From assembly GCA_963662465.1 (NCBI GenBank), contig OY759599.1:1440001-1504000 (forward strand): a DNA stretch of 64,000 bases, read 5' to 3'. Below, piece after piece: positions 17,986-43,898 of this stretch (position 1 is the first letter of the stretch; each line of letters begins with the position of its first letter). The notes under the pieces were generated by a model. The model was not told the DNA's origin and made no database searches. It worked only from the letters and a program-made list of their open reading frames with translations. This DNA comes from Desulfatiglandales bacterium. Lineage in GTDB: Bacteria > Desulfobacterota > DSM-4660 > Desulfatiglandales > Desulfatiglandaceae. The position numbers and the translations under genes were made by a program.

Positions 17986-20900
17986 GAATCGACCGTCTCG
18001 ACCTCATGGCCTATGGCCCCTTCACGGATAAGTCCTTAGACCTTTCTGATGGGGCATCAGGTTTACATCTCATCTATGGCGACAATGAAGCCGGTAAAAG
18101 CACATCGTTGAGAGCGCTTGTTGCCTGGTTGTTCGGAATTCCCGTTCAGACAAACGATAGCTTTCTTCATGCCAATCCGCAGCTTCGGATCGGTGGAAAA
18201 TTGAGGTTGTCCGATGGAAACGAAATCGAGTTTGTAAGGCGAAAGGGCGCCAAGGGCACTTTGCTCAAATATGGTACGGATGATCCTCTTGAGGACACTG
18301 TTCTTGCGCCGTTTTTACCTGGCGGCATCGACGAAAATCTATTTATAAAACTCTGGGGAATAGACCATGGCAGGTTGATTGCCGGCGGCCAGGAGCTGCT
18401 GGACCAATCCGGGGATCTTGGGCAGGCGCTATTCAGCGCGGCGGTTGGTACGGCAAATCTTCGAGATGTATTGACGGCTCTGCAAAATAGCGCGGATGCT
18501 ATTTTCAAACCACGACGTCGCAAAACAGCGCTGAACCAGTCGATTTCAAATTTCAAGGACGCCCAAAAGAGAATGAAGGATGCCGGTTTGCCGGTTTCCG
18601 AATGGAAGAAACTGCAAAAAGGCTTATCGGATACGGTTGCGGCTATTGCGCACGTCGAAAAAGACCTCGAGTTAAAAGGCAAAGCCAAGAGTTGCCTGGA
18701 ACGCGTTAATCGCGTCAAGGGAGCACTGGCCCAGCGGCGAACTGTTCTGGAGAAAATTGACGAATTGGGACAAGTGTTGCTGCTGCCGGAAGATTTCGAA
18801 GAAAGAAGAAAGACCGCCGGCGACAATCTTCAAATTGCTGGTGAGAGAAAGGAAAGACTTGAGACGAAGCTTGCAAGCCTGACCGAAGAATCGGAAACAT
18901 TAAACGTTCGTAATGAGTTGCTTGAAAACGAAGAAGCGATCCTGGCGCTATACAGAGAACTGGGTGCGGTTGAAAAGACACTTAAAGATCGACCACAGCA
19001 AGATGGCAAGCGCCGGTTGTTGCGCAACGAAGCCGAGACGCTGCTCAAAAGTGTGCGTCCTGATGTGGGATTGGACCAATCCGATGTTTTACGGCCGCTT
19101 CTCAACAATAAAAAGTGGATCTCCGGTCTGGCGCAAAAACACGGCCTGTTGACGCACAGGAAAGCGCGGGCTGAAGAGACCCTGAGAGATATTGAGGACC
19201 AGCGGAAATCGCTTTGTAACGAATTCGACCATAAGCCGCAATCGGAACTCGATCTAAAAGAATTGAAAGCCGCAATTGCCGCAGCCCGCAAAGCGGGTGA
19301 TGTAGAGCGACGTTTGGCTGAAGTACGGAAACGGGCCGCTGAGGAAGATGCGGCGTGCAAAAGCGAGCTTGCGAGACTTGGCAGGTTCACGGGGGCGGTT
19401 GGGTCGCTGTTGAAGGTGGCCATGCCCGTGTCTGAGACACTCGACGCTTTTGAAAAAGAGAACGACGCGCTGTCCGAAAGCGTGAAGGACACGATACGCA
19501 AACGGCATGAGGCCGAAGGGGAGAAAACGCAGACAGCGCAGGAATTGAAGGCGCTGTTGCTGACAAGCGATGTGCCGACAATGGCTGAACTGGCGGCATC
19601 ACGAGAGGTTCGCAATACGGGGTGGCGTTTAATAAAACAAAAATATATTGAACAAAGCGTTATCGGAAAGGAACTTTCGGAATACGCACCCGATTCCGAT
19701 CTGCCAACGGTCTACGAGCAGAAAGTCGATCATGCTGATCACGTATCGGATCGCCTTCGATTGGCTGCCGACCAAGTGGTGAAAAGGGCGGATTATGAGG
19801 CAAAAATAGAAAACCTGGAATCGCGGATCGATGGTCTGGCAGAAGCCGTCGAAAAGGTAACCGATGCCCAAAAGGCCTACCAGGAGAGATGGTCTGCGAT
19901 CTGGGCGCCTCTGGGAATCGATGCTGGAACGCCAAGAGAGATGAAGCAATGGCTTCTCAGAGTGGAAAACCTTGTCGAAAAGGTCCAGGCGGCAAATGCG
20001 GTCTCCGTGGATGAACAAAATCTTACCGGAGAATGCGAGCGGTTGAAGGAAGCGGTATCGACTCAGATCGTTAAATTCGATGCATCGCTCGACCATGGGG
20101 GCATGAGCCTTGAGGCCTTGATATCGTTGTGTGAACAGCGGGTAGCGGAGGAGGAAGGGGTTCGCGAGCGACGACGACAGCTTGAACAATTACTGAACGA
20201 AGCCGAAATTCGGTTAAAAAGAACGCAGGTTGAACTTAAATCAATCGATACGGAGCTATCGAATTGGTCACAAGAATGGGGTCAAGCCATCGAAGGGTTG
20301 GGCCTGAAATCAAACGTTCACCCGGAATATGCCGCCGAAACATTCGACCAGCTCGTGTCTTTCTTTGACAAATTCGACAAGTCTGAAGCGCTGCGTAAGC
20401 GAATATACGGAATGGATCAGGTCGAGGAGAAATTTGAAAAAAAGGTATTCGAATTTGCTGGCGGCATTGGTTTTAACCGGAATGGACAAGCGGCGGCCGC
20501 CACAATTACCGCGCAGTTGCATCGAGATTTGAATACCGCGCGTGAAGCTCGCGCAAGCCTGACCAAAATACAGACGCAAATCAAAGAAATAAAAGAGGAC
20601 ATCGAGGATGCCGACATCACGATTCGAACGTCAGGAGACCAGCTTGCCGCATTGAGGGAGCAGGCCGGTGTGGATACGGACGAAGCGCTGATAGCGGCGG
20701 GCGAAAAATCGCGCAATAAACGTGAAATTCAAAAGAATCTCGATATGCTCGAGCAGGAACTCAATCGCAATGGAGACGGCCTTAGCATCAAAGCGCTGGA
20801 AAAGGAGTCCGAAGAATCTGAGATCGATTCAACCGAAGGGGAACTCGAAAAAATCTCTATTGAGCTGAAGGAGCTTCAGGCAAATCGCGATAGTTTGCGC

Positions 20901-30096: not shown

Positions 30097-30444
30097 TTAG
30101 GAAATATCCATGACAAGTTTCATGCCTTCATAGACTTCAGCAAGTCTGTCTTTTTTGAGGCTGCCGATCATTTCTCTGAGGCTGGCTTTATCAACCGTTT
30201 TGATCTGCGTCATATTCACAACCGATCTTTTGGGGAGGTTTGCTTCACCCTGCCGCAGAATTACATTTCCCGGCAGTTCGCCGAATTTAAGGTTTGATGT
30301 GATGGCCGCTACAATAACCGTGTTCAATTTGCTGTCATTCAGGATGTCGTTTTGAACAACGAGTCCGGGGCGTCTACCCATCGGTTCGGAGCCTTTTGGG
30401 GGCGAAAAATCGACCCAGTAAACAGAACCTTTTCGAATTACCAT
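30097..30444 (-). CDS. mazF: PemK/MazF toxin
   Basis: GSVYWVDFSPPKGSEPMGRRPGLVVQND...TVIVAAITS. Confidence 0.92.
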   Translation of the reverse strand: MVIRKGSVYWVDFSPPKGSEPMGRRPGLVVQNDILNDSKLNTVIVAAITSNLKFGELPGNVILRQGEANLPKRSVVNMTQIKTVDKASLREMIGSLKKDRLAEVYEGMKLVMDIS

Positions 30445-30692
30445 TCCTGCCCCTCTTCAATCTCCGCTCCTTCGAACCATAAGGCGCTGCTGAGCTGTTC
30501 GTTTCTTACGGACTCATCTGAAAATATGCGATCGTAAGCCTCCTTGATATTGCGATTTCGATCCGACAGGAGCTTTTCCCTGAGTGTATCAGAAATAAAT
30601 TTGCTCCTGGAAAGGCCTTTTTGACGGCTCAAGGCATCGATCATTACGATCAGGTCTTTCGGAATTGTAATGGCAACCTTTTGAGTATGCAT
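30438..30692 (-). CDS. RHH/CopG-type antitoxin
   Basis: KVAITIPKDL..ID...GLSRSKFI. Confidence 0.85.
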   Translation of the reverse strand: MHTQKVAITIPKDLIVMIDALSRQKGLSRSKFISDTLREKLLSDRNRNIKEAYDRIFSDESVRNEQLSSALWFEGAEIEEGQEW

Positions 30693-32481: not shown

Positions 32482-32635
32482 TTTGAACACGATTCACAGG
32501 ATTAAATACGATTCACAGGATTAGAAGATGGCGGCCCGGCAAATTTCTCCTCGTCATGGGGAGACCTTTTTGTTTGCGGTTTATCGCCCAAGGGTAATCC
32601 TGTCCATCATTATAATCTTCTAAATCGTGTTCAAA
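32482..32635. repeat. Solo diverged copy of the GxxExxY-associated inverted-repeat element
   Basis: TTTGAACACGATT...AATCGTGTTCAAA with the same internal sequence as the array units. Confidence 0.92.
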
Positions 32636-32647
32636 CAGTGTCCCCAT

Positions 32648-34327
32648 TCATAAAACCAGATTGTGCGCCAGAACGGGGCGGGAAAAACCTTTCACGGTAA
32701 TCTCGCCCCCGGTTTCAAATTGGAAAGCATCTTTTACCAGTGCCCAGGTGGCATGGCTGACCAGAATCCCCCCGGGGGCGCAGGCGCCTTCCAGGCGGGA
32801 GGCGAGATTGACGTGCATCCCGAAGGCCGTAAAATCTTTTCGGTTTTTGGATCCGAACCCTCCGACGTTCACCATGCCCGTATTGATGCCGCAACGAATC
32901 TGTAACGGTTGGGCAATCCCTTCATTGAACCATTTTTCATTCAGTTCCGACATTTTTCGCTGCATAGTAACGGCCATTTGGGCGCAGTGTAATGCATTGT
33001 TCTTATCGTTTCCTTTTTCGGGAGCCCCGAAAAAAATAAAGAGTTCATCCCCTTTGACATTGGCCACAACCCCGCCGTATTCATTGGCGATCTCGTACAT
33101 CTCCGACAGATACTCATTGAGAAGGTTCGCCATGTCTTCGGGTTCCATGGATTCCGTGATGTTTGTAAAATCCTTGATATCCGAAAAAAACAGGGTGAGT
33201 CTTTTACGTGAATAATCCCATACATCATCGATTTCATTGGCCAAAATCCTTTCCGTCAATTGAACCGGAACATATTTGGCCAGCACCTTATGGGCCCGCG
33301 CCACGGTCTCTTTCTCACGTTGAAGGTCACAGGTTCTCTCTTCAACCAGTTTTTCCAGGTTTTCGCGATGGTATAAATTGTCGAAAGCGATGGCCACGTT
33401 TGAAAGAAAAATATTGATCAGATCCCTGTCGGTTTTACCCACGGGCTTTTGGCTTTCAAGATAGAGAATGTTTTCAATACAACGGTTGGTTTTGAAATAG
33501 CAGATGATTTTTTTATCCTTAAAATTGTTCTTTTTCTCCCTGAGTGCCTCGTTGATGTCATCCTTGACATTTTGATCGCTCAAGTCCGTCACACATCGAT
33601 CCAGATACTTTTCATAATGGCCTGTTCCGGCGACAATCTTGTAGTTGTCTTGTTCCTGGGTCGCCGCAAACCCACAGGTTCCATCGGATGTTCGGAGCAA
33701 CAGTGAATTTTCTTCAAAACCCAATATGGATGTCAACTGGGCCAACACGCCCGCTGTAAACTGTTTGAAGGATGAAAGTTTCAACAGACTTGAAGAGGCA
33801 TTGATAATCATCTCAAGTCCTTTGCGGTTCTTTTCAATCACGTTCAGATCGCGACAGGACCGCAGTGCCGAGGTTACCGCCGTAAAAAGCCTGCTGCTGG
33901 TCAACTCTTCCTTGGTTTTATAATCATTGATGTCATACTCAATAATGACCTTTTTTTCAGGCGCCTGTCCGGGTTGACCCGTGCGCAGGATGATCCGCAC
34001 AATGGTGTTTTGTAGCTCCTCCCGGATATACCGAACAACATCCAATCCGGCATGATCCGTTTCCATGACCACATCCAGAAGGATCACCGCCGTATCTGGA
34101 TGTTCCGCAATCAACCGCCTGGCTTCCGCTCCGGAATAGGCGCTTAAAAACACCATATTCCGCCCATCAAAAACGTAGTCCTCAAAAATCATGCGGGTCA
34201 CATTGTGAACATCTTCCACATCATCAACGATCATCATTTTCCATGCATTTTGATGAACCGCTGCGTCTTTCTCAAGATCATCGTCTTCAAAGAAAAGTTC
34301 CTCTTCTTCAGATACGTTTAATGTCAT
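32648..34327 (-). CDS. Response regulator (REC-DUF3369) adenylate/guanylate cyclase
   Basis: LLDVVME..AGL...IILRTGQPGQAPE; FFSDIKDFT, RCGINTG, VNLASRLE. Confidence 0.9.
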   Translation of the reverse strand: MTLNVSEEEELFFEDDDLEKDAAVHQNAWKMMIVDDVEDVHNVTRMIFEDYVFDGRNMVFLSAYSGAEARRLIAEHPDTAVILLDVVMETDHAGLDVVRYIREELQNTIVRIILRTGQPGQAPEKKVIIEYDINDYKTKEELTSSRLFTAVTSALRSCRDLNVIEKNRKGLEMIINASSSLLKLSSFKQFTAGVLAQLTSILGFEENSLLLRTSDGTCGFAATQEQDNYKIVAGTGHYEKYLDRCVTDLSDQNVKDDINEALREKKNNFKDKKIICYFKTNRCIENILYLESQKPVGKTDRDLINIFLSNVAIAFDNLYHRENLEKLVEERTCDLQREKETVARAHKVLAKYVPVQLTERILANEIDDVWDYSRKRLTLFFSDIKDFTNITESMEPEDMANLLNEYLSEMYEIANEYGGVVANVKGDELFIFFGAPEKGNDKNNALHCAQMAVTMQRKMSELNEKWFNEGIAQPLQIRCGINTGMVNVGGFGSKNRKDFTAFGMHVNLASRLEGACAPGGILVSHATWALVKDAFQFETGGEITVKGFSRPVLAHNLVL

Positions 34328-34565
34328 TTAATTTCTCCATACATGGAATTTGTATCAAAGTCATTCGTTCGGTTGGGCGATCACGATTCGAATTCAGAAT
34401 CTCCGCGGATGAGGCTGTTTCGAAAAATAATTCAAGTGCTTCCTTAAGATTTTTCCGGGCAGCCTCGATTGTATCCCCCTGGCTGGCAATATCGAACTCC
34501 GGGCAAAACGAAACATAACCGTCACCTTCACGTTCGATAATTGCAGTGAGTTGTTTTTGCATCAT
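34308..34565 (-). pseudogene. HicB-like antitoxin, solitary, 3' end probably replaced
   Basis: LTAIIEREGDGYVSFCPEFDIASQGDTIEAARKNLKEALELFFE; no hicA. Confidence 0.7.
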
Positions 34566-34611
34566 ACTTTCTCCAAATGTTTTAATTCGTTTTTAATCGG
34601 CAAACGTTCCG

Positions 34612-37600
34612 TTATTCCAGGATCTTCATCCCTTCTGGAATTTTCATTCTGATCATCATACCATTTCCCTGCGTACTCTCACATGAAATCTTCCCCCTGA
34701 GGCTCTGGGTCACCAGGTTATGCACAATGTGCATCCCCAGCCCGCTTCCCCCCTGGGAGCGTTTGGTGGTGAAGAACGGATCAAAGATCTTGTTCAAATC
34801 TTTTTCGTTCATCCCCTTGCCGTTGTCCCGGTAGGTCAATATGATGGAACCGTTATCTTCTGTAGCGTCAAAACTGATTTCGCCCGCTTCCATTTCGTCA
34901 AAGCCATGAATCAGGGAATTCATCACCAGGTTTGAGATAATCTGGGAAAAGGCGCCGGGGTAACTATTCAATGTCAGCGCTTCCGGGCAGTTGACGGTAA
35001 CCAGGTGCTTTGTTTTCTTCAGTTTCGGTTTCAGGCTCAAGAGCACATCTTCGATATAGGCCTTGAGAGTAAACTCGCGGCGTTCGCCGCTGGTCTGGTC
35101 TACCGCCACCTGTTTGAAGCCCTGCACGATTTTCACCGCGCCGCTCAGGTTCTTGAGGATCAGGTTGGAGGAATCGCCGGCGGTTTTGGCATAGCTGTTC
35201 AGGTCGGAACGTTTCAGCTTTTGGGCTGCCACTTTTGCCACGAATTCCTGTGTTTTGTCTTCCAGGTGGGATGCGGCGGTCACGGCGATGCCGATGGGCG
35301 TATTGACTTCATGGGCAACCCCCGCCACCAAGCCCCCCAAAGCTGCCATTTTCTCGGATTGCACCAGTTGCGCCTGGGTCTTCTGGATGGTGTCGAGGGA
35401 TTGCTTCAGTTCCGTTGTTCTTTCCTCCACTTTTTCTTCCAGGGTTTTGGAATAGTCCTGCTGCTGTTTGTACAGGTCCGCGTTTTCAAGGGAGATGGCC
35501 GCCTGAGAGCAGAGCAGTGGAAGGACTTCAAGGCGCTCCGGGGTGAATGCGCCCGTTGCCAGGTTGTTTTCAAGATAGATGATGCCGCTCAAATTGTTTC
35601 GATGGATCAACGGGGCGCATAATAGGGATTTGGGTTGATGGTTCATGATGTAGGGGTCAGTGGTGAACTTCCCTTGGTGGGCGGCATCCTCAAGGACAAG
35701 GTTTTCGTTGACCCGGGCAACGTATTGAATGATGGTGACTGGCACGTTTGGAGAATCTTCCAGAGGAACGGACTGAAGCACCTGAACCTTTTCCTGATGG
35801 ATATGACCTTCGGCCTCGATCCGGAAATCCCCGTCTGATTTCAGGATCAGGCAGCCTTTTTCAGCACCCGCATTTTCAATGATGATCTGCATCATGCGGG
35901 AAAGGAGTTTCTCGATCTGGATTTCCCCTGATATCACCTGGGAGGCTTTCATGACGGAGGTCAGATCAAGCTGTTCGCCTTTAAGCTGGTTGCTGGTGGT
36001 GGTGATGGTTGTTGCATGGCCGGGTTTCCGGTCTTTATCATTGGTGGATGCTTGTGACGTTTTGGTCGAAACAACAGCCAGCAGTTCAGGGTAATTTATG
36101 TCCAGATGATCCACTTTTGCCCTGGCGCCCCAATGGTCATAGCAATACCTGGCTTCTGTCATATACTTTCGGGCGGTCTCGGTTTCTCCCTTTTCCAGGT
36201 AAAATTTTGCGGCCAACTCATTGGTCAGGGCTTCTTCCTGGATGTACTGGTTTTCCTTGGCTCCGGCGATGGCCTGGTTGTAGAAAGCAATGGCTTTCTC
36301 ATCTTTTCCGAGAACTCTCGCTCGTTCGGCCTCCACCAGTTGCCATTTGTGGAGATAATTCATTGGGGCGTGATAAGCCCATTTTTTCATCTTTTTTTGG
36401 TTTTTGGCAACTTTTCGAAGGATGAGTTTTTGGTTGGTTATTGGAGTTCCAGAGAACAGTGCCAATTGGGTCAGGGAATCGTAGAAATGGAAAACGACAA
36501 ATGGCACCATGCCTGTTACAGCAACTAAATGCTTTTCTGTATTTCCGGCATTATTAGCTGCCTGATCGTATTGCTGGAATAGATAACAAAGGATAAGTTT
36601 ATTCAAATACAAACCGCAAGTTCCAGTTTTATCATTTTCTTCTTGATAAAGCTTTAGTATTCTTTTTTCATCAAAAGCATCTCCAGTTAATATTGTAGGA
36701 TCTTCATTGTAACCCATCAAATTCAATACTACCTGCAAAGCCCTTTGGTTAAGAAATAGAAATGGTTTTTGCCCTAATTTTCTAATAGCATTGTTGTATT
36801 TGGATATATTTTGCTCAATCGTTAATAATTCTATTCCAGCAAAATAAGAATAAAGTGAGTAATTAAACGCGTTACTGGCAGCATCTTCCAAAGCCCCAAT
36901 TTCAAGGCTTTTTTGGAATCCCGTTTTGAATGGTTCTAACGATTCCCTGACATGTCTTTTCCAATGTTTAATATGACAATTAAATCCAAATTGGGCTTTT
37001 ACGTCTGCTGATTTGGCATTGAGTTTTTCTGATAACCGTACTCCCAACTTTCCGAATTCGAAACCGGATTTTATATCTCCTATGCCCCCGCATAGAATAG
37101 CGCCATATGCGGTATATGAACCACTTGATTCTGGAGCATTACCGTATTTGACGGATAGATTTATACCTGAAAAGACTAGAAATGGATAAAGCTCGGGCGC
37201 AGAAAAATAAACAGAGTTGCTCATACTTGTTCCAATACGCATCGCGGCAAACTTATAAGGATCAGTCATTTCCGGAAGGTTGATTAAAAACTCAGGTTGT
37301 TTTCCAAGCAAAGCGAATCTTGTTCTCAGATAGGCGGCCAAAAGATTCAATTTGGTCGGTTTTTGGGGGACAGTCATGCCTAAGAGCTTTGAAACATGAA
37401 GCCCGATCTTTACAGCATCCAGCAGCTTATGTTGCGCCGTATAGGCTTGAATCTTTACATCGTAAGTTTTTATCTTATCCAGCACGGTTTTTGCGTGCTG
37501 CAAGACTATCTCTGCCAAATCCCCCATCTCCTCATAGTCGCCGCAAAGAAAAGCTGCTTCTGCTGCTTCCTCGTGGAGCGTCAGAGTTAAGCCATATTGC

Positions 37601-40014
37601 ACCTGCCAGCTATCTTCTCGAAGCATTCCTATGCCGGATTTCAGGTAATCAAATGCCGGCACATAAGCCGCAGAAAGTTTCGCTTTTTTACCGGCAAGAA
37701 GATTTAATTGCGCAAGTTTTTCCCGTTCCTCTTCATCTGTCATCAATTCAGAACTTAAATTGAGTTGATCAACTACCGCCAAGATCTGCTCTTCAAGCTC
37801 CTCTTCAGAAATCCTCTTCAGCATCTCCCTGCCGATTTGCAGATGCACTTCCGGTCTCTCTTTTTCTTCAATCAGGGAATAGGCTGCCTGTTGTACCCGG
37901 TCGTGCAGAAATTTGTACACGGGAGATAGATGGTCACGGTCGGAAATCTTATCAGAAGTTGGAGATTTAAGCGGAGAAGAAATATACTTGTACGATTCAT
38001 CCACCGGCAGGACCAATTCCTCCTGCAATGCCGGCAATAAATCATCCGCCGTCTCCTGAACCGGTTTTTCATACACAATGGAGAGGGTGTTTAAATCAAA
38101 TCGATTTCCGATACAGGCTGCAAGGCTGAGAAGATGCCCGGTATTCCCTGATAATTTTTGAATCTTGCTGACCATCAAATCAACGACATTATCGGTAATA
38201 TCGGTTTGCCTGATTCTCTCCTCATCCCACTGCCAGATTCCTTCATCGCTATTAAAAAAAATCAGCCCGTCCTGATACAGGGAATGGATGAACTGGTTCA
38301 GAAAGAAAGGATTCCCCCGGGTTTTGGCAAAGCATAACCCGGCAAGGGGGTTTGATCGCTCCGGATCGCACGAAAAAGTTTCCGACAGGAGCTGGTTGAC
38401 GTGGGTTTCCATCAGCAATTGCAGTGGGATGGTTTCAACTTCCGCCCCGCTTTTTTCGATTTCCTCAATGGTCCGCATCAAAGGGTGGGCAGGGTCCACT
38501 TCATTGTCCCGATAAGCGCCGATGAGATAGAGATATTCCGCTTTTACGGTGATGAACATCTCGATCAGTTTCAGGGACGCCGCATCCGCCCATTGGAGGT
38601 CATCCAGGAAAATCACCAGGGGGTGATCTTCGGCGGCAAAGGTGTTGATAAAGTTTTCAAAGACATAGTTGAACCGGTTCACATTCTCCGTGGGACCCAG
38701 CGTCGGGACTTCCGGCTGGCTGCCGATAATCAGCTCCAGCTCCGGGATGACCTCGATCATCACCCGGCCGTTGGGGCCTAACGCTTTTAACAATTTCTCT
38801 TTCCAGGTGGATATCTGCGCGTCGCTTTCAGACAGAATCTGCCGGATCAATTGCTGAAAGGCCTGGATCAGGGGAACGTATGGGGTGCTCTTTTTTAACT
38901 GGTCGAATTTGCCTGAAATGAAATATCTCTTCTTACTTTTTGCGGTCAGGGGATTTTGCGTCTGTTGTGTCAGGGGCCGTTGAACTTCATGCACCAGGGC
39001 GGATTTGCCGATACCCGCCGGACCCGTCACCAACACCATTTTGCAGGCGCCCCGGCTTACCTCGTCAAAACCTGACAACAGGGTGTTGATTTCAGCTTCC
39101 CGGCCATAGAGTTTTTGCGGAATCCGAAGCCTGTCCGAGATATCCTTTTGCCCGATTTCAAAGGGCTCTATTTTCCCTGAACCTTCGAGCCTGTCCAGGC
39201 ATTGCCGCAAATCGTGCTGAATCCCAAAGGCCCCCTGATAGCGGTCTTCCGCATCCTTTGCCATGAGCTTCAGGATGATATCCGATAGGACCGGTGGGAT
39301 TGCGGCGTTGATTTTATGCGGCGGTTCAGGCATCAATGCCAGATGGGCATGCACCAGTTCAATGGGTTCCGTGGACAGGAAAGGCAGTCGGCCGGTGAAC
39401 AATTCGTAGAGCGTTACACCAAAGGAATAGAAGTCCGTTCGCCAGTCCACCAGGCGGTTCATGCGGCCGGTTTGTTCCGGGGACATGTAGGGCAGGGTGG
39501 CCGTCATCAGCATGGAACGTTCGACGGTGGGGGTTTCCCGGGAGATGATACTGGCCGAGCTGAAATCCATCAGTTTCAGGACGCCGGTTTCAGGGTTATA
39601 GAGGATGTTGGAAGGTTTGATATCTTTGTGGATGATGTGCGCCTGATAGATTTCGCCTAACGCTGATGCGGTTTTGACGGCGATCTCTAAAAACTGATCA
39701 ACTTTCAAGGCCTCTGATTTTTGCGGGGTTTTAAGATCAGCGCCGCCGGAGTCCTCCAATACCAGGTAGGGCCGGTGGTCATGCATGATGAGATCCATCA
39801 CTTTAACTACACCTTCTAACCCATTGGCTTTAAAGGTCTTCAGAACATTATATTCATGGCTGTAGCGTGCCGTTTCATGGGGAGAGGGGTGGGCGCTTGC
39901 GGTGGTTTTCAGGATAACCGGTTGGTTGTCATCGGTGTTTACGGCACGATAGACGTGGGTGTTGGCACCTTGGTATAGGGTGTCAGTAATGTCAAAATCC
40001 TTGAACTCGGTCAT
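34612..40014 (-). CDS. Ser/Thr kinase-AAA ATPase-TPR-GAF-histidine kinase hybrid
   Basis: HKDIKPSN, YMSPEQTGRMNR, GPAGIGKS, FLDDLQWAD, FLHDRVQQAAY, AHEVNTP, PFFTTK..GSGLG. Confidence 0.95.
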   Translation of the reverse strand: MTEFKDFDITDTLYQGANTHVYRAVNTDDNQPVILKTTASAHPSPHETARYSHEYNVLKTFKANGLEGVVKVMDLIMHDHRPYLVLEDSGGADLKTPQKSEALKVDQFLEIAVKTASALGEIYQAHIIHKDIKPSNILYNPETGVLKLMDFSSASIISRETPTVERSMLMTATLPYMSPEQTGRMNRLVDWRTDFYSFGVTLYELFTGRLPFLSTEPIELVHAHLALMPEPPHKINAAIPPVLSDIILKLMAKDAEDRYQGAFGIQHDLRQCLDRLEGSGKIEPFEIGQKDISDRLRIPQKLYGREAEINTLLSGFDEVSRGACKMVLVTGPAGIGKSALVHEVQRPLTQQTQNPLTAKSKKRYFISGKFDQLKKSTPYVPLIQAFQQLIRQILSESDAQISTWKEKLLKALGPNGRVMIEVIPELELIIGSQPEVPTLGPTENVNRFNYVFENFINTFAAEDHPLVIFLDDLQWADAASLKLIEMFITVKAEYLYLIGAYRDNEVDPAHPLMRTIEEIEKSGAEVETIPLQLLMETHVNQLLSETFSCDPERSNPLAGLCFAKTRGNPFFLNQFIHSLYQDGLIFFNSDEGIWQWDEERIRQTDITDNVVDLMVSKIQKLSGNTGHLLSLAACIGNRFDLNTLSIVYEKPVQETADDLLPALQEELVLPVDESYKYISSPLKSPTSDKISDRDHLSPVYKFLHDRVQQAAYSLIEEKERPEVHLQIGREMLKRISEEELEEQILAVVDQLNLSSELMTDEEEREKLAQLNLLAGKKAKLSAAYVPAFDYLKSGIGMLREDSWQVQYGLTLTLHEEAAEAAFLCGDYEEMGDLAEIVLQHAKTVLDKIKTYDVKIQAYTAQHKLLDAVKIGLHVSKLLGMTVPQKPTKLNLLAAYLRTRFALLGKQPEFLINLPEMTDPYKFAAMRIGTSMSNSVYFSAPELYPFLVFSGINLSVKYGNAPESSGSYTAYGAILCGGIGDIKSGFEFGKLGVRLSEKLNAKSADVKAQFGFNCHIKHWKRHVRESLEPFKTGFQKSLEIGALEDAASNAFNYSLYSYFAGIELLTIEQNISKYNNAIRKLGQKPFLFLNQRALQVVLNLMGYNEDPTILTGDAFDEKRILKLYQEENDKTGTCGLYLNKLILCYLFQQYDQAANNAGNTEKHLVAVTGMVPFVVFHFYDSLTQLALFSGTPITNQKLILRKVAKNQKKMKKWAYHAPMNYLHKWQLVEAERARVLGKDEKAIAFYNQAIAGAKENQYIQEEALTNELAAKFYLEKGETETARKYMTEARYCYDHWGARAKVDHLDINYPELLAVVSTKTSQASTNDKDRKPGHATTITTTSNQLKGEQLDLTSVMKASQVISGEIQIEKLLSRMMQIIIENAGAEKGCLILKSDGDFRIEAEGHIHQEKVQVLQSVPLEDSPNVPVTIIQYVARVNENLVLEDAAHQGKFTTDPYIMNHQPKSLLCAPLIHRNNLSGIIYLENNLATGAFTPERLEVLPLLCSQAAISLENADLYKQQQDYSKTLEEKVEERTTELKQSLDTIQKTQAQLVQSEKMAALGGLVAGVAHEVNTPIGIAVTAASHLEDKTQEFVAKVAAQKLKRSDLNSYAKTAGDSSNLILKNLSGAVKIVQGFKQVAVDQTSGERREFTLKAYIEDVLLSLKPKLKKTKHLVTVNCPEALTLNSYPGAFSQIISNLVMNSLIHGFDEMEAGEISFDATEDNGSIILTYRDNGKGMNEKDLNKIFDPFFTTKRSQGGSGLGMHIVHNLVTQSLRGKISCESTQGNGMMIRMKIPEGMKILE

Positions 40015-40062
40015 GTTCAGCTCCGTGTTTGAGGTCGTCCGTTTTTTTTAAGATGCAAGCGT

Positions 40063-42531
40063 TTTGAACACGATTCACAGGATTTAACAAGATGAACAGG
40101 ATTAGAAGATGACGTCCCGGCAATTTTCTTATTGTCATGGGGAAACCTTCTTGTTTGCGGTCTATCGGCGAAGAGTATAATCCTGTCCATCATCATAATC
40201 TTTTAAATCGTGTTCAAACAGCGCCCCGTTCATGATGCAATCCAGCTTCGTTGTTCCTCCCCGTTCTGAACACGATTCACAGGATTTAACACGATGAACA
40301 GGATTAGAAGATGAGGTCCCGACAATTTTCTTATTGTCATGGGGAAACCTTCTTGTTTGCGGTCTATCGGCGAAGAGTATAATCCTGTCCATCATCATAA
40401 TCTTTTAAATCGTGTTCAAACAGCGCCCCGTTCATGATGCAATCCAGCTTCGTTGTTCCTCCCCATTCTGAACACGATTCACAGGATTAAATACGATGAA
40501 CAGGATTAGAAGATGAGGTCCCGACAATTTTCTTATTGTCATGGGGAAACCTTCTTGTTTGCGGTCTATCGGCGAAGAGTATAATCCTGTCTATCATCAT
40601 AATCTTTTAAATCGTGTTCAAACAGCCTCCCCGTTCATGATGCCATCCAGCTTCGTTGTTCCTCCCCATTCTGAACACGATTCACAGGATTTAACACGAT
40701 GAACAGGATTAGAAGATGAGGTCCCGACAATTTTCTTATTGTCATGGAGAAACCTTCTTGTTTGCGGTCTATCGGCGAAGAGTATAATCCTGTCCATCAT
40801 CATAATCTTTTAAATCGTGTTCAAACAGCCTCCCCGTTCATGATGCCATCCAGCTTCGTTGTTCCTCCCCATTCTGAACACGATTCACAGGATTTAACAC
40901 GATGAACAGGATTAGAAGATGAGGTCCCGACAATTTTCTTATTGTCATGGGGAAACCTTCTTGTTTGCGGTCTATCGGCGAAGAGTATAATCCTGTCTAT
41001 CATCATAATCTTTTAAATCGTGTTCAAACAGCCTCCCCGTTCATGATGCCATCCAGCTTCGTTGTTCCTCCCCATTCTGAACACGATTCACAGGATTTAA
41101 CACGATGAACAGGATTAGAAGATGAGGTCCCGACAATTTTCTTATTGTCATGGGGAAACCTTCTTGTTTGCGGTCTATCGGCGAAGAGTATAATCCTGTC
41201 TATCATCATAATCTTTTAAATCGTGTTCAAACAGCCTCCCCGTACGATGAACAGGATTAGAAGATGAGGTCCCGACAATTTTCTTAGATGCCATCCAGCT
41301 TCGTTGTTCCTCCCCATCTTGAACACGATTCACAGGATTAAATACGATGAACAGGATTAGAAGATGAGGTCCCGACAATTTTCTTATTGTCATGGGGAAA
41401 CCTTCTTGTTTGCGGTCTATCGGCGAAGAGTATAATCCTGTCTATCATCATAATCTTTTAAATCGTGTTCAAACAGCCTCCCCGTTCATGATGCCATCCA
41501 GCTTCGTTGTTCCTCCCCATTCTGAACACGATTCACAGGATTTAACACGATGAACAGGATTAGAAGATGAGGTCCCGACAATTTTCTTATTGTCATGGGG
41601 AAACCTTCTTGTTTGCGGTCTATCGGCGAAGAGTATAATCCTGTCTATCATCATAATCTTTTAAATCGTGTTCAAACAGCGCCCCGTTCATGATGCTATC
41701 CAGCTTCGTTGTTCCTCCCCATTCTGAACACGATTCACAGGATTTAACACGATGAACAGGATTAGAAGATGAGGTCCCGACAATTTTCTTATTGTCATGG
41801 GGAAACCTTCTTGTTTGCGGTCTATCGGCGAAGAGTATAATCCTGTCCATCATCATAATCTTTTAAATCGTGTTCAAACAGCGCCCCGTTCATGATGCTA
41901 TCCAGTTCGTTGTTTCTCCCCATTCTGAACACGATTCACAGGATTAAATACGATGAACAGGATTAGAAGATGAGGTCCCGACAATTTTCTTATTGTCATG
42001 GGGAAACCTTCTTGTTTGCGGTCTATCGGCGAAGAGTATAATCCTGTCCATCATCATAATCTTTTAAATCGTGTTCAAACAGCCTCCCCGTTCATGATGC
42101 CATCCAGCTTCGTTGTTCCTCCCCATCTTGAACACGATTCACAGGATTAAATACGATGAACAGGATTAGAAGATGAGGTCCCGACAATTTTCTTATTGTC
42201 ATGGGGAAACCTTCTTGTTTGCGGTCTATCGGCGAAGAGTATAATCCTGTCCATCATCATAATCTTTTAAATCGTGTTCAAACAGCGCCCCGTTCATGAT
42301 GCCATCCAGCTTCGTTGTTCCTCCCCATCTTGAACACGATTCACAGGATTTAACACGATGAACAGGATTAGAAGATGAGGTCCCGACAATTTTCTTATTG
42401 TCATGGGGAAACCTTCTTGTTTGCGGTCTATCGGCGAAGAGTATAATCCTGTCTATCATCATAATCTTTTAAATCGTGTTCAAACAGCCTCCCCGTTCAT
42501 GATGCCATCCAGCTTCGTTGTTCCTCCCCGT
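40063..42531. repeat. Tandem array of 12 near-identical units (156-bp inverted-repeat element plus ~46-bp constant linker)
   Basis: TGAACACGATT starts at 40065, 40267, 40469, 40672, 40875, 41078, 41320, 41523, 41725, 41926, 42129, 42331. Confidence 0.97.
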
Positions 42532-43046
42532 TTTGAACACGATTCACAGGATTAAATACGATGAACAGGATTAGAAGACGGCGTCCCAACAAGTTTCTTG
42601 TTGTAAAGCCGTTTAAATTCAAGGCTCCGTCCTCCGAAATTCATCAACAATCCATCGGAAATTCCATAGGCTTCCAGATAATTGATAGCCTGTGCCTTGT
42701 GAGCATCTTGCAGTTTTTCCACAGCTTTCAATTCAACCATCACACGATGGTCAACAAAAAAATCGACCCTTCTCGTTCCGATTTGTTTATTGCGATAAAA
42801 TATCGGCATTTCCTTTTCACGCGCAAAGGATAACCCCTGAAAAGTCATTTCAATCGCCAGGGCGCGTTGATAAATCACCTCTTGGAATCCATTGCCGAGC
42901 GAACTGTGAACCTTCATCGCGCAACCGATGACCACATGCGTCAATTCGTTAATCCCGTCACTCGTCATGGTGAGACCTTTTTGTTTGCGGTTTATTGGTC
43001 AATGGTAATCCTGTCTGTCATTATAATCTTTAAAATCGTATTCAAA
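42532..43046 (-). mobile_element. Expanded 13th unit: same inverted arms enclosing a GxxExxY gene (putative autonomous element)
   Basis: Left arm at 42532, right arm ending AATCGTATTCAAA at 43046; mobility is inferred. Confidence 0.5.
42552..42968 (-). CDS. GxxExxY protein (PD-(D/E)XK-like fold)
   Basis: VHSSLGNGFQEVIYQRAL, RVDFFV, VELKAV, QAINYL, GLLMNFG. Confidence 0.95.
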   Translation of the reverse strand: MTSDGINELTHVVIGCAMKVHSSLGNGFQEVIYQRALAIEMTFQGLSFAREKEMPIFYRNKQIGTRRVDFFVDHRVMVELKAVEKLQDAHKAQAINYLEAYGISDGLLMNFGGRSLEFKRLYNKKLVGTPSSNPVHRI

Positions 43047-43248
43047 CAGCATAATTTATACCTTTTCAAATTGAAAAGAAATTGCAAAATTCAAAACGAT
43101 CGTCAGGTGTAAAATGAAAAGGACCATGGAAAAGGTGATGACCTGCTTTTTACCGTATCTGTGTAGCAAGAAACCAAAGACGATCCAACAGATGTCCATT
43201 GACTTCAACCTCGCCTTGCATTACGGTATGTAATACGGAGGGGATAAA

Positions 43249-43491
43249 ATGATCACACTAAGATTAGAAGAAAAATTAGAGCAAGATATAAATAATACAG
43301 CGAAAAACTTGGGACTGACAAAATCCGAACTGATTCGCCAAAGCATCCATGACTATCTTCAGAAGCTTCAAAAACCAAATGCGTGGGAGTTAGGCGAAGA
43401 TTTGTTTGGTAAATACTCAAGCGGCCTTGGAAATTTGTCGGAAAACCGGAAAGAGCTGATGAAAGAAAAAATAAAGGCTAAAGGAAAATGA
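43249..43491 (+). CDS. RHH/CopG antitoxin
   Basis: ITLRLEEKLE...GLTKSELIRQSI; ATGA overlap. Confidence 0.85.
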   Translation: MITLRLEEKLEQDINNTAKNLGLTKSELIRQSIHDYLQKLQKPNAWELGEDLFGKYSSGLGNLSENRKELMKEKIKAKGK

Positions 43492-43898
43492 AAAAAATCC
43501 TCATAGATTCCGGTCCGTTAATTGCCTTGTTTGATGCATCGGATAAATATTATCATAAAACAGTTAATTTTATACAATCAAATAAATATCCGCTTGTTAC
43601 AACGCTTGCATCAATCACGGAAACGCTCCACTTGTTGGACTTTAATCGAAATGCACAGATAGATTTCCTCGTGTGGATTGATAAAGGGGCCATTGAAATT
43701 CAACATATTGACAGCAGTGATTTTGGAAGACTCAAAGAATTAACTGAAAAGTATCGGGATTTGCCAATGGATTTTGCGGATGCTTGTCTGCTATATCTTG
43801 CGGAAAAACAGAGCCTGAACACCATTGCAACGATTGATCGGGATTTTACAATTTATCGAATAGGTGGTAAAAAGAAATTCAAGGTTGTTCTTTCTTAA
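43488..43898 (+). CDS. PIN-domain toxin
   Basis: ILIDSGPLIALF...ITETLHLL...DLPMDFADA...TIDRDF. Confidence 0.9.
   Translation: MKKILIDSGPLIALFDASDKYYHKTVNFIQSNKYPLVTTLASITETLHLLDFNRNAQIDFLVWIDKGAIEIQHIDSSDFGRLKELTEKYRDLPMDFADACLLYLAEKQSLNTIATIDRDFTIYRIGGKKKFKVVLS

Follow-up and report, generated by a model that had tools for sequence, protein, structure and literature searches.

A GxxExxY gene between inverted arms and an adjoining array of gene-less units: a candidate selfish element in a Desulfatiglandales bacterium

Background

Two kinds of enzyme serve as points of comparison for the locus described here, namely the repetitive extragenic palindrome (REP)-associated tyrosine transposases (RAYTs), which form an HUH/Y1 tyrosine transposase class, and the homing endonuclease SegB, which is a GIY-YIG enzyme. 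REP doublets forming hairpins (REPINs) occur in tandem clusters of near-identical units that include their flanks, and a cognate cluster lies beside each enzyme gene (PMC3116915). For tandem amplification driven by a nuclease, SegB sets a precedent, as it brings about segmental amplification in phage T6 (PMC13096335), and in type III toxin-antitoxin systems the antitoxin repeats are located upstream of the toxin (PMC3401426). Our locus lies in a window of 64,000 nucleotides (the whole stretch of DNA that was analysed; positions 1,440,001 to 1,504,000 of contig OY759599.1) from a Desulfatiglandales bacterium (assembly GCA_963662465.1, referred to as G000). It holds a gene of the GxxExxY (PDDEXK_3) family enclosed by two inverted arms, adjoined by a tandem array of 12 gene-less (empty) copies of the same element, and we interpret it as a candidate selfish element. 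Full-text searches for GxxExxY and for PDDEXK_3/PF13366/TIGR04256, together with topic searches, returned no description of such an element (subscription papers and supplements lay outside their scope), and GxxExxY was met only in passing.

The element works most like a REPIN with its RAYT but falls outside that group, since its enzyme is not of the RAYT type. As with REPINs and bacterial interspersed mosaic elements, there are dispersed, intergenic, hairpin-forming gene-less units of several flavours per genome, as well as tandem clusters of near-identical units with their flanks, one of which, of the cognate flavour, lies beside the enzyme gene (PMC3116915, PMC3184786). Unlike in those systems, the enzyme is a 138-aa protein of predicted PD-(D/E)XK fold rather than an HUH/Y1 tyrosine transposase, the arms are made of periodic 9-10-bp repeats that tightly enclose the gene and overlap its stop codon, and the empties are internal deletions of the gene-bearing copy. 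Insertion sequences and their miniature inverted-repeat derivatives share with our element the terminal inverted repeats around one gene and the existence of derivatives that keep the ends but lack the middle, which here arose more than once. They differ in that no DDE, HUH or serine transposase family was matched at our locus, no fixed-length target duplication was evident among the 52 loci with both ends defined (only occasional ones of 21-46 bp) and amplification is in tandem beside the gene.

SegB resembles the enzyme considered here in being a small nuclease whose cuts could become tandem amplification through host or phage recombination (PMC13096335), whereas here the enzyme would act on the arms that enclose its own gene, copies lacking the gene are scattered, and a bacterial chromosome serves as host. 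Type III toxin-antitoxin loci likewise have tandem repeats adjoining a small nuclease gene, but our array is downstream of the gene, is built of 156-bp inverted-repeat units and has no counterpart at 78 of 80 homologous loci. Lastly, Cas4/RecB nucleases (SSO0001, lambda exonuclease) are the top Foldseek matches to the protein, with weak Cas4b profile matches in addition; the protein is much smaller than these (~15% identity) and is encoded outside any CRISPR locus, beside an array without variable spacers.

Results

The gene-bearing (filled) element is 515 bp long (42532-43046; the element, its parts, the array and its linkers are all on the reverse strand) and contains an open reading frame (ORF) of 138 aa (42552-42968). 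A first-pass annotation, made from the letters alone, had called this ORF a complete GxxExxY gene, and profile searches bear this out (Pfam PDDEXK_3, E 6e-39; TIGR04256 GxxExxY, E 5e-40), with scores well above the family cut-offs (136.5 bits versus 35 for TIGR04256 and 133.5 versus 22 for PF13366). In the downstream arm (42532-42575), four 9-10-bp repeats sharing a GAT core come after a terminus. This arm closely resembles its counterpart in the array units, and the upstream arm (43006-43046) is an imperfect inverted copy of it. The stop codon of the gene lies inside the downstream arm, again as first annotated.

The enclosed protein matched only PDDEXK_3 / GxxExxY and no transposase family in Pfam or NCBIfam. 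Residues E30, D69, E79, K81 and Q93 are invariant among 100 close homologues; the first four we take to be the PD-(D/E)XK motifs, which are intact, and there is a QxxxY-type motif as well. The predicted structure (predicted local distance difference test score 75.8) was most similar in Foldseek to the Cas4 protein SSO0001 (E 3.6e-4) and next to lambda-type exonucleases, and a wide structural search returned SwaI (Z 8.6, root-mean-square deviation 3.3, 120 residues aligned) and many PD-(D/E)XK folds at Z 4-7. Cas4b profiles matched weakly (E 9e-4), and a sequence search of the PDB with the protein gave nothing significant. The model therefore has the restriction-endonuclease-like fold with its acidic and lysine residues, but such matches to a predicted structure fix the fold, PD-(D/E)XK, and not the function; PDDEXK_3 is itself listed as of unknown function (PMC3424549).

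The array (40063-42484) consists of 12 gene-less units of 156 bp arranged head to tail, starting at 40063, 40265, 40467, 40670, 40873, 41076, 41318, 41521, 41723, 41924, 42127 and 42329, the last of them ending at 42484. In window coordinates it precedes the filled copy, so that it is downstream of the GxxExxY gene and in the same orientation, and it ends 48 bp before the start of a gene for an 1800-aa kinase/AAA/GAF/histidine-kinase protein. The number and length of the units agree with the first-pass annotation, as do its ~46-bp linkers: they measure 45-47 bp, with the sole exception of 86 bp after unit 6 (41232-41317), where a 43-bp copy of unit interior forms what looks, as assembled, like a template-switch scar. 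The 47 bp between the filled element and unit 12 (42485-42531) are the same as the array linkers.

The linkers are more than inert filler: in each, ~13 bp from the right outer flank of the element meet ~33 bp from its left outer flank, and both stretches are also found beside solitary copies. With the linker built in this way from flanking sequence of the element itself, the array repeats every 201-203 bp (242 bp in one case), in keeping with the output of Tandem Repeats Finder (period 203, 12.3 copies, score 3594). Units differ from one another at 1-13 positions per ~203 bp in a mosaic pattern, with 19 variable columns in all and no variable segment. Given this and the lack of any Rfam match, the array does not have the constant repeats and variable spacers of a CRISPR-like guide array.

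The first-pass annotation also described the gene's ATG as fused to its last codons in every empty unit. Both ATG and tail are indeed retained, but the ATG is out of frame with the NKKIVG tail and opens an unrelated frame of 25-72 aa (36 aa in 9 of the 12 units). A small peptide translated from this ATG was considered and rejected, since the ATG is out of frame with the tail and the length differs in other copies of the same deletion class. Single-stranded DNA of each unit is predicted to form one long hairpin (fold z -3.17), whereas RNA of the gene strand has a fold z of only -1.85. An Rfam scan of 39900-43400 gave no match at E 1, and a promoter and terminator scan found no consensus inside the array, one promoter-like site outside it (7.5 expected) and no terminators. 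One metatranscriptome contig matches 40796-40980 exactly at a depth of 2.3, though contigs cannot show transcription, and metatranscriptome run X8 and the runs with small shares are no evidence of expression or habitat. The earlier suggestion that the array is transcribed into structured RNAs gained no support from the Rfam, RNA-fold, promoter and terminator results.

Contig depths were used to examine the soundness of the assembly. A 177-nt contig placed on 41950-42126 had a depth of 317.1 against 37.3 for unique flank in run X1 (8.5-fold) and of 327 against 42.1 in run X2 (7.8-fold). These ratios are close to the mean 31-mer multiplicity predicted from the assembly (8.76), which argues against misassembly, the artefact that the first-pass annotation had named as a possible refutation. 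The two runs represent one sample, from which the assembly itself may have been made; the array is not bridged by any single contig, and the order of units comes from the assembly alone.

The array and the filled copy beside it appear to have separate histories. Array units match the adjacent filled arms at only 132 of 154 positions (86%), and their short linker junction, which is ~40 bp shorter than the longer junction of the congener G004, also occurs in the congener G010, in a two-unit cluster at the homologous kinase gene. For both reasons, sequence comparison indicates that the array was not derived from the adjacent filled copy but descends from an older gene-less dimer common to a congener, and it probably represents the expansion of one old gene-less unit rather than serial fresh deletions or insertions. 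In neither G004 nor G010 does the DNA beyond the GxxExxY gene adjoin the kinase gene, which suggests that the filled copy was joined to the array through a rearrangement in the arm. The kinase gene and a cyclase gene (32648-40014) form a tandemly duplicated block in congeners (G010 C2 727274, 735550), the junctions of which carry these elements.

A genome-wide search, which the first-pass annotation had recommended for the unit, was made with a profile built from 15 copies and gave 39 matches outside the array locus, 17 of them complete empties; arm motifs had no match in 2 Mb of shuffled genome. One solitary empty of 154 bp (32482-32635, reverse strand), which the first-pass annotation had not pointed out, is found where an adenylate/guanylate cyclase gene has its 3' end, at a distance of 7.4 kb from the array. 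There are also a half copy and a second filled copy, which has 87% amino-acid identity to the first and a changed start codon with an upstream ATG available. When ten empties were aligned to the filled copy they fell into three deletion classes, all of which keep both arms. Class A is the array type, to which the solitary empty at 32482-32635 also belongs. Class B has a different join, whose 13-bp match to the 3' end of the gene is weak alone (reached by 70 of 2000 shuffles). Class C retains a piece of the gene's middle, which scored 37 and 35 where 2000 shuffles reached 25 at most. These alignments identify the empties as internal-deletion derivatives of the gene-bearing copy. Distant GxxExxY paralogues in the genome carry periodic arms of their own that differ from these. 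In G004 and G010 there was no match to the gene body, and one or two complete units were present at three fully assembled homologous sites.

Homologous loci were compared to determine how arms relate to the protein. Each of the 8000 candidates that were scored when homologues were sought passed E 1e-10, and the loci used are the best 80 among 591 found, whose record titles are mostly of Bacteroidota. Complementarity between upstream and downstream flanks exceeded the 99th percentile of same-locus controls in 52 of 79 scoreable loci, compared with 17% of non-cognate pairs. Arm-like motifs were ~36 times denser next to the genes (115 in the 44 kb adjoining 80 homologous genes versus 27 in 377 kb further off), and the arm terminus motif was found at 57 of 83 close homologues but only 1 of 20 distant paralogues. 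The more alike two proteins were, the more alike were their flanks (Mantel r of 0.53 for n = 105 and of 0.36 for n = 83; 0 of 500 permutations each), although these statistics are inflated by kinship and base composition. The arms covary with the protein, a point that the first-pass annotation had proposed to test.

Among the 52 homologous loci with both ends defined, 5 (L056, L060, L076, L077 and L088) have 21-46 bp of the left flank repeated 2-4 bp past the right end. At loci L031-L110 the right end often runs straight into the next gene's start codon (AATG in 15 cases). At L064 the element appears to be inserted within an earlier GxxExxY gene, and at L239 (G1138 C11 ~20356-20900) arms alternate with pieces that look like D-arm fragments of tRNA.

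Metagenome contigs gave no match to the tandem-junction pattern and one locus with the arm pattern, a class B empty without gene. Viral contigs gave 11 arm-pattern loci, none with a gene, of which 9 are apparently chance matches and 2 are identical arm-like palindromes; a homologue was present on one viral contig. A plasmid search returned 8 records.

Long arrays that touch an intact gene were found at 2 of the 80 homologous loci, with 13 units of 106-114 bp downstream of the gene at L035 and 7 units of ~82 bp upstream of it at L097, whose genome has a second GxxExxY gene followed by 4 units. All 16 matches in the genome of L035 and all 31 in that of L097 fall at gene loci. The geometry of these arrays is unlike that of the complete units in the window, since the right arm is without its outer end in most of them and keeps it only in the last. 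Pattern searches blind to the gene covered 401 genomes of the order to which L035's genome belongs and 401 of its phylum. Of the 10 loci obtained, 4 were repeats that are unrelated or masked and 6 were true clusters of arms; an intact gene adjoins 3 of the latter, which consist of at least 7 units, of 5 units, and of terminus repeats plus 2 units. A three-unit pattern of the window's arm type had no match in 400 other genomes of its phylum. In every case seen in this analysis where the context of a near-identical array of at least 5 units could be determined, an intact gene adjoins it. The recurrence of similar arrays beside related genes suggests that the nuclease cuts its own flanking repeats and thereby drives their copying.

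Several other features were observed. A second inverted-repeat element of 260-550 bp, of which 34 ends were seen (e.g. G000 C1 1405594-1405896 and 7097927-7098367), collects REP-like hairpins and several kinds of GxxExxY-type arms. A search for its mobiliser found an inward ORF of more than 150 aa at 4 of 44 ends, none transposase-like by eye. At L111 1640-3800 (G000 C1 ~6950140-6952300) a group II intron (RF00029, with a 439-aa reverse transcriptase/maturase) sits between the arms of one element copy, directly after a REP-like hairpin. Toxin-antitoxin modules occur near the array locus (window 43249-43898, 30097-30692 and 34308-34565), namely a ribbon-helix-helix plus PIN pair, a PemK-like toxin with its partner, and an unmatched 85-aa ORF that resembles a HicB fragment; half-elements bracket similar modules in G004 (L003) and G010 (L162). 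A tandem-repeat scan also showed a CRISPR-like array of period ~73 at G000 C1 1267235-1270813.

Discussion

We place the locus among autonomous/non-autonomous element pairs, its enzyme being from a family that is not known to play such a part. The first-pass annotation had proposed such a pair, and the three deletion classes, the covariation of arms with protein and the recurrent arrays uphold that part of it; action of the protein on the element stays an inference. On balance we lean, by a modest degree, towards a selfish element in which a Cas4/RecB-like nuclease cuts its own arms, mainly in cis, and host repair copies them. Such an element would comprise a single small nuclease gene, the cognate inverted arms on its two sides and gene-less deletion derivatives. 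The GxxExxY protein would bind the short GAT-core repeats of its own arms and nick or cut at or near them, mainly on DNA adjoining its own gene, and host repair synthesis might then re-copy DNA from the break by strand displacement or template switching. Break and copying could yield the long flank duplications that stay in register, the internal deletions sparing both arms and an initial duplication in tandem; once two copies exist, unequal recombination would expand and shuffle the array. In the window, a filled element may have been linked, probably through a recombination event in the downstream arm, to an old two-unit empty cluster ahead of the kinase gene, and the cluster may then have grown to 12 units.

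A number of observations weigh against a selfish element driven by its nuclease. The divergence of array units from the adjacent filled arms is that of an older empty lineage, the second filled copy in the genome has no array and 78 of the 80 homologous loci lack an array of at least 4 units. The inflation of the covariation statistics belongs here too. Long flank duplications are absent from 47 of the 52 loci with defined ends, and short ones are not enriched (4-5 bp in 6 of 52, versus at least 4 bp in 196 of 2651 cross pairs). Among the six gene-blind arm clusters, two (3-4 diverged units) have no gene within the 0.9-1.5 kb flanks examined and one runs off its contig, and contig C7 of G004, which has elements at both ends, could hide an array without a gene. 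The first-pass annotation had looked to filled, empty and absent alleles at orthologous loci, but there was no clean empty target site at the 10 sites compared with G004 and G010. Of five G000 sites queried in both congeners, one was shared, one was a breakpoint and three lacked syntenic flanks; of five G010 sites compared back, one was shared, three differed without a clean junction and one lacked syntenic flanks. Element presence does differ between G000 and G010 at several sites, within rearranged intergenic DNA.

Other repeats in the same and other genomes bear on this as well. In 16 of 28 genome matches with a left arm, the arm is just inside the end of another inverted-repeat element, and part of the dispersal may therefore be passive hitch-hiking. 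This genome has two non-coding 105-bp arrays of an unrelated repeat (25.7 and 10.9 copies), with distances to any GxxExxY gene of 5.4 and 28.6 kb, and G761 and G985 contain non-coding arrays of ~200 bp that are likewise unrelated, so arrays also form without a GxxExxY protein. The 105-bp arrays (G000 C1 86291-88975 and 8147984-8149128) share one unit of heptamer repeats, and both follow the same kind of 132-aa ORF, the first being followed in turn by transposase-like ORFs.

These last observations lend weight to an alternative that we regard as unlikely, yet far from negligible, in which the array is a by-product: an old empty dimer would have expanded by host slippage and unequal recombination alone, aided by its hairpin, while another mobile repeat dispersed the element, and the adjoining gene would be incidental or would merely mark a place where elements pile up. 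It is consistent with the array lineage predating the link to the filled copy, with the mosaic variants, which fit unequal exchange, with the unrelated arrays in this genome, G761 and G985, with the nested left arms (one copy of the enclosing element has an 8-bp target duplication) and with the tandem REPIN clusters including flanks reported in Pseudomonas (PMC3116915). Nevertheless, none of the 17 complete solitary empties elsewhere in the genome has been amplified, and the near-identical arrays of at least 5 units with a determinable context seen in this analysis, including those from the gene-blind searches, each adjoin an intact gene.

Selection of the array as a control device, with decoy arms titrating a harmful or autoregulating nuclease or repeated RNAs inhibiting it in the manner of type III antitoxins, seems distinctly improbable. 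Arrays do abut intact genes, the unit does form a long hairpin as single-stranded DNA, and the metatranscriptome contig noted above matches part of the array, within the limits stated for such contigs. Against these stand the 78 of 80 homologues that have no array, the position of arrays downstream at some loci and upstream at others (type III antitoxin repeats are upstream of the toxin; PMC3401426), the failure of unit length and sequence to be conserved between loci, the lack of an Rfam match and the modest RNA fold.

It is very unlikely that the arms are the recombination sites of a cassette system in which the gene and small cargo such as toxin-antitoxin modules enter or leave at empties and the array records entries. 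Complete empty elements on both sides of the homologue at L050, L060 and L076, and the half-elements around toxin-antitoxin-like modules in G004 and G010, would fit such a system, but all 12 units have one deleted junction and are free of cargo, suggesting that a single unit was copied; moreover, the array has no recombinase gene next to it, and the breakpoints of half-elements are scattered across the central region. That the array was inflated or invented by assembly, as the absence of a spanning contig and the one aberrant linker might hint, can be given practically no weight in view of the depth ratios, the patterned variants among units and the tandem copies in congeners.

Conclusions

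Whether GxxExxY genes with their arms form a mobile-element class of their own, in which a minimal Cas4/RecB-like nuclease recognises its periodic arms, cuts in cis and spreads through break-primed copying, is a more tentative proposal, for which we see not quite an even chance. Such a class would leave as its footprints flank duplications of variable length (21-46 bp), internal deletions arising again and again, and arrays of empties that amplify themselves beside an active gene. The locus supplies a concrete putative substrate, the arm, and a test of specificity in the covariation of arms with protein, and it offers a simple in vivo read-out in the growth of a two-unit cluster into an array beside an active gene. 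If the proposal is true, a very small element driven by a PD-(D/E)XK enzyme would be a further kind of mobile DNA in bacteria, and it would explain why a class of inverted repeats with periodic structure, and of tandem arrays that do not code for protein, exists.

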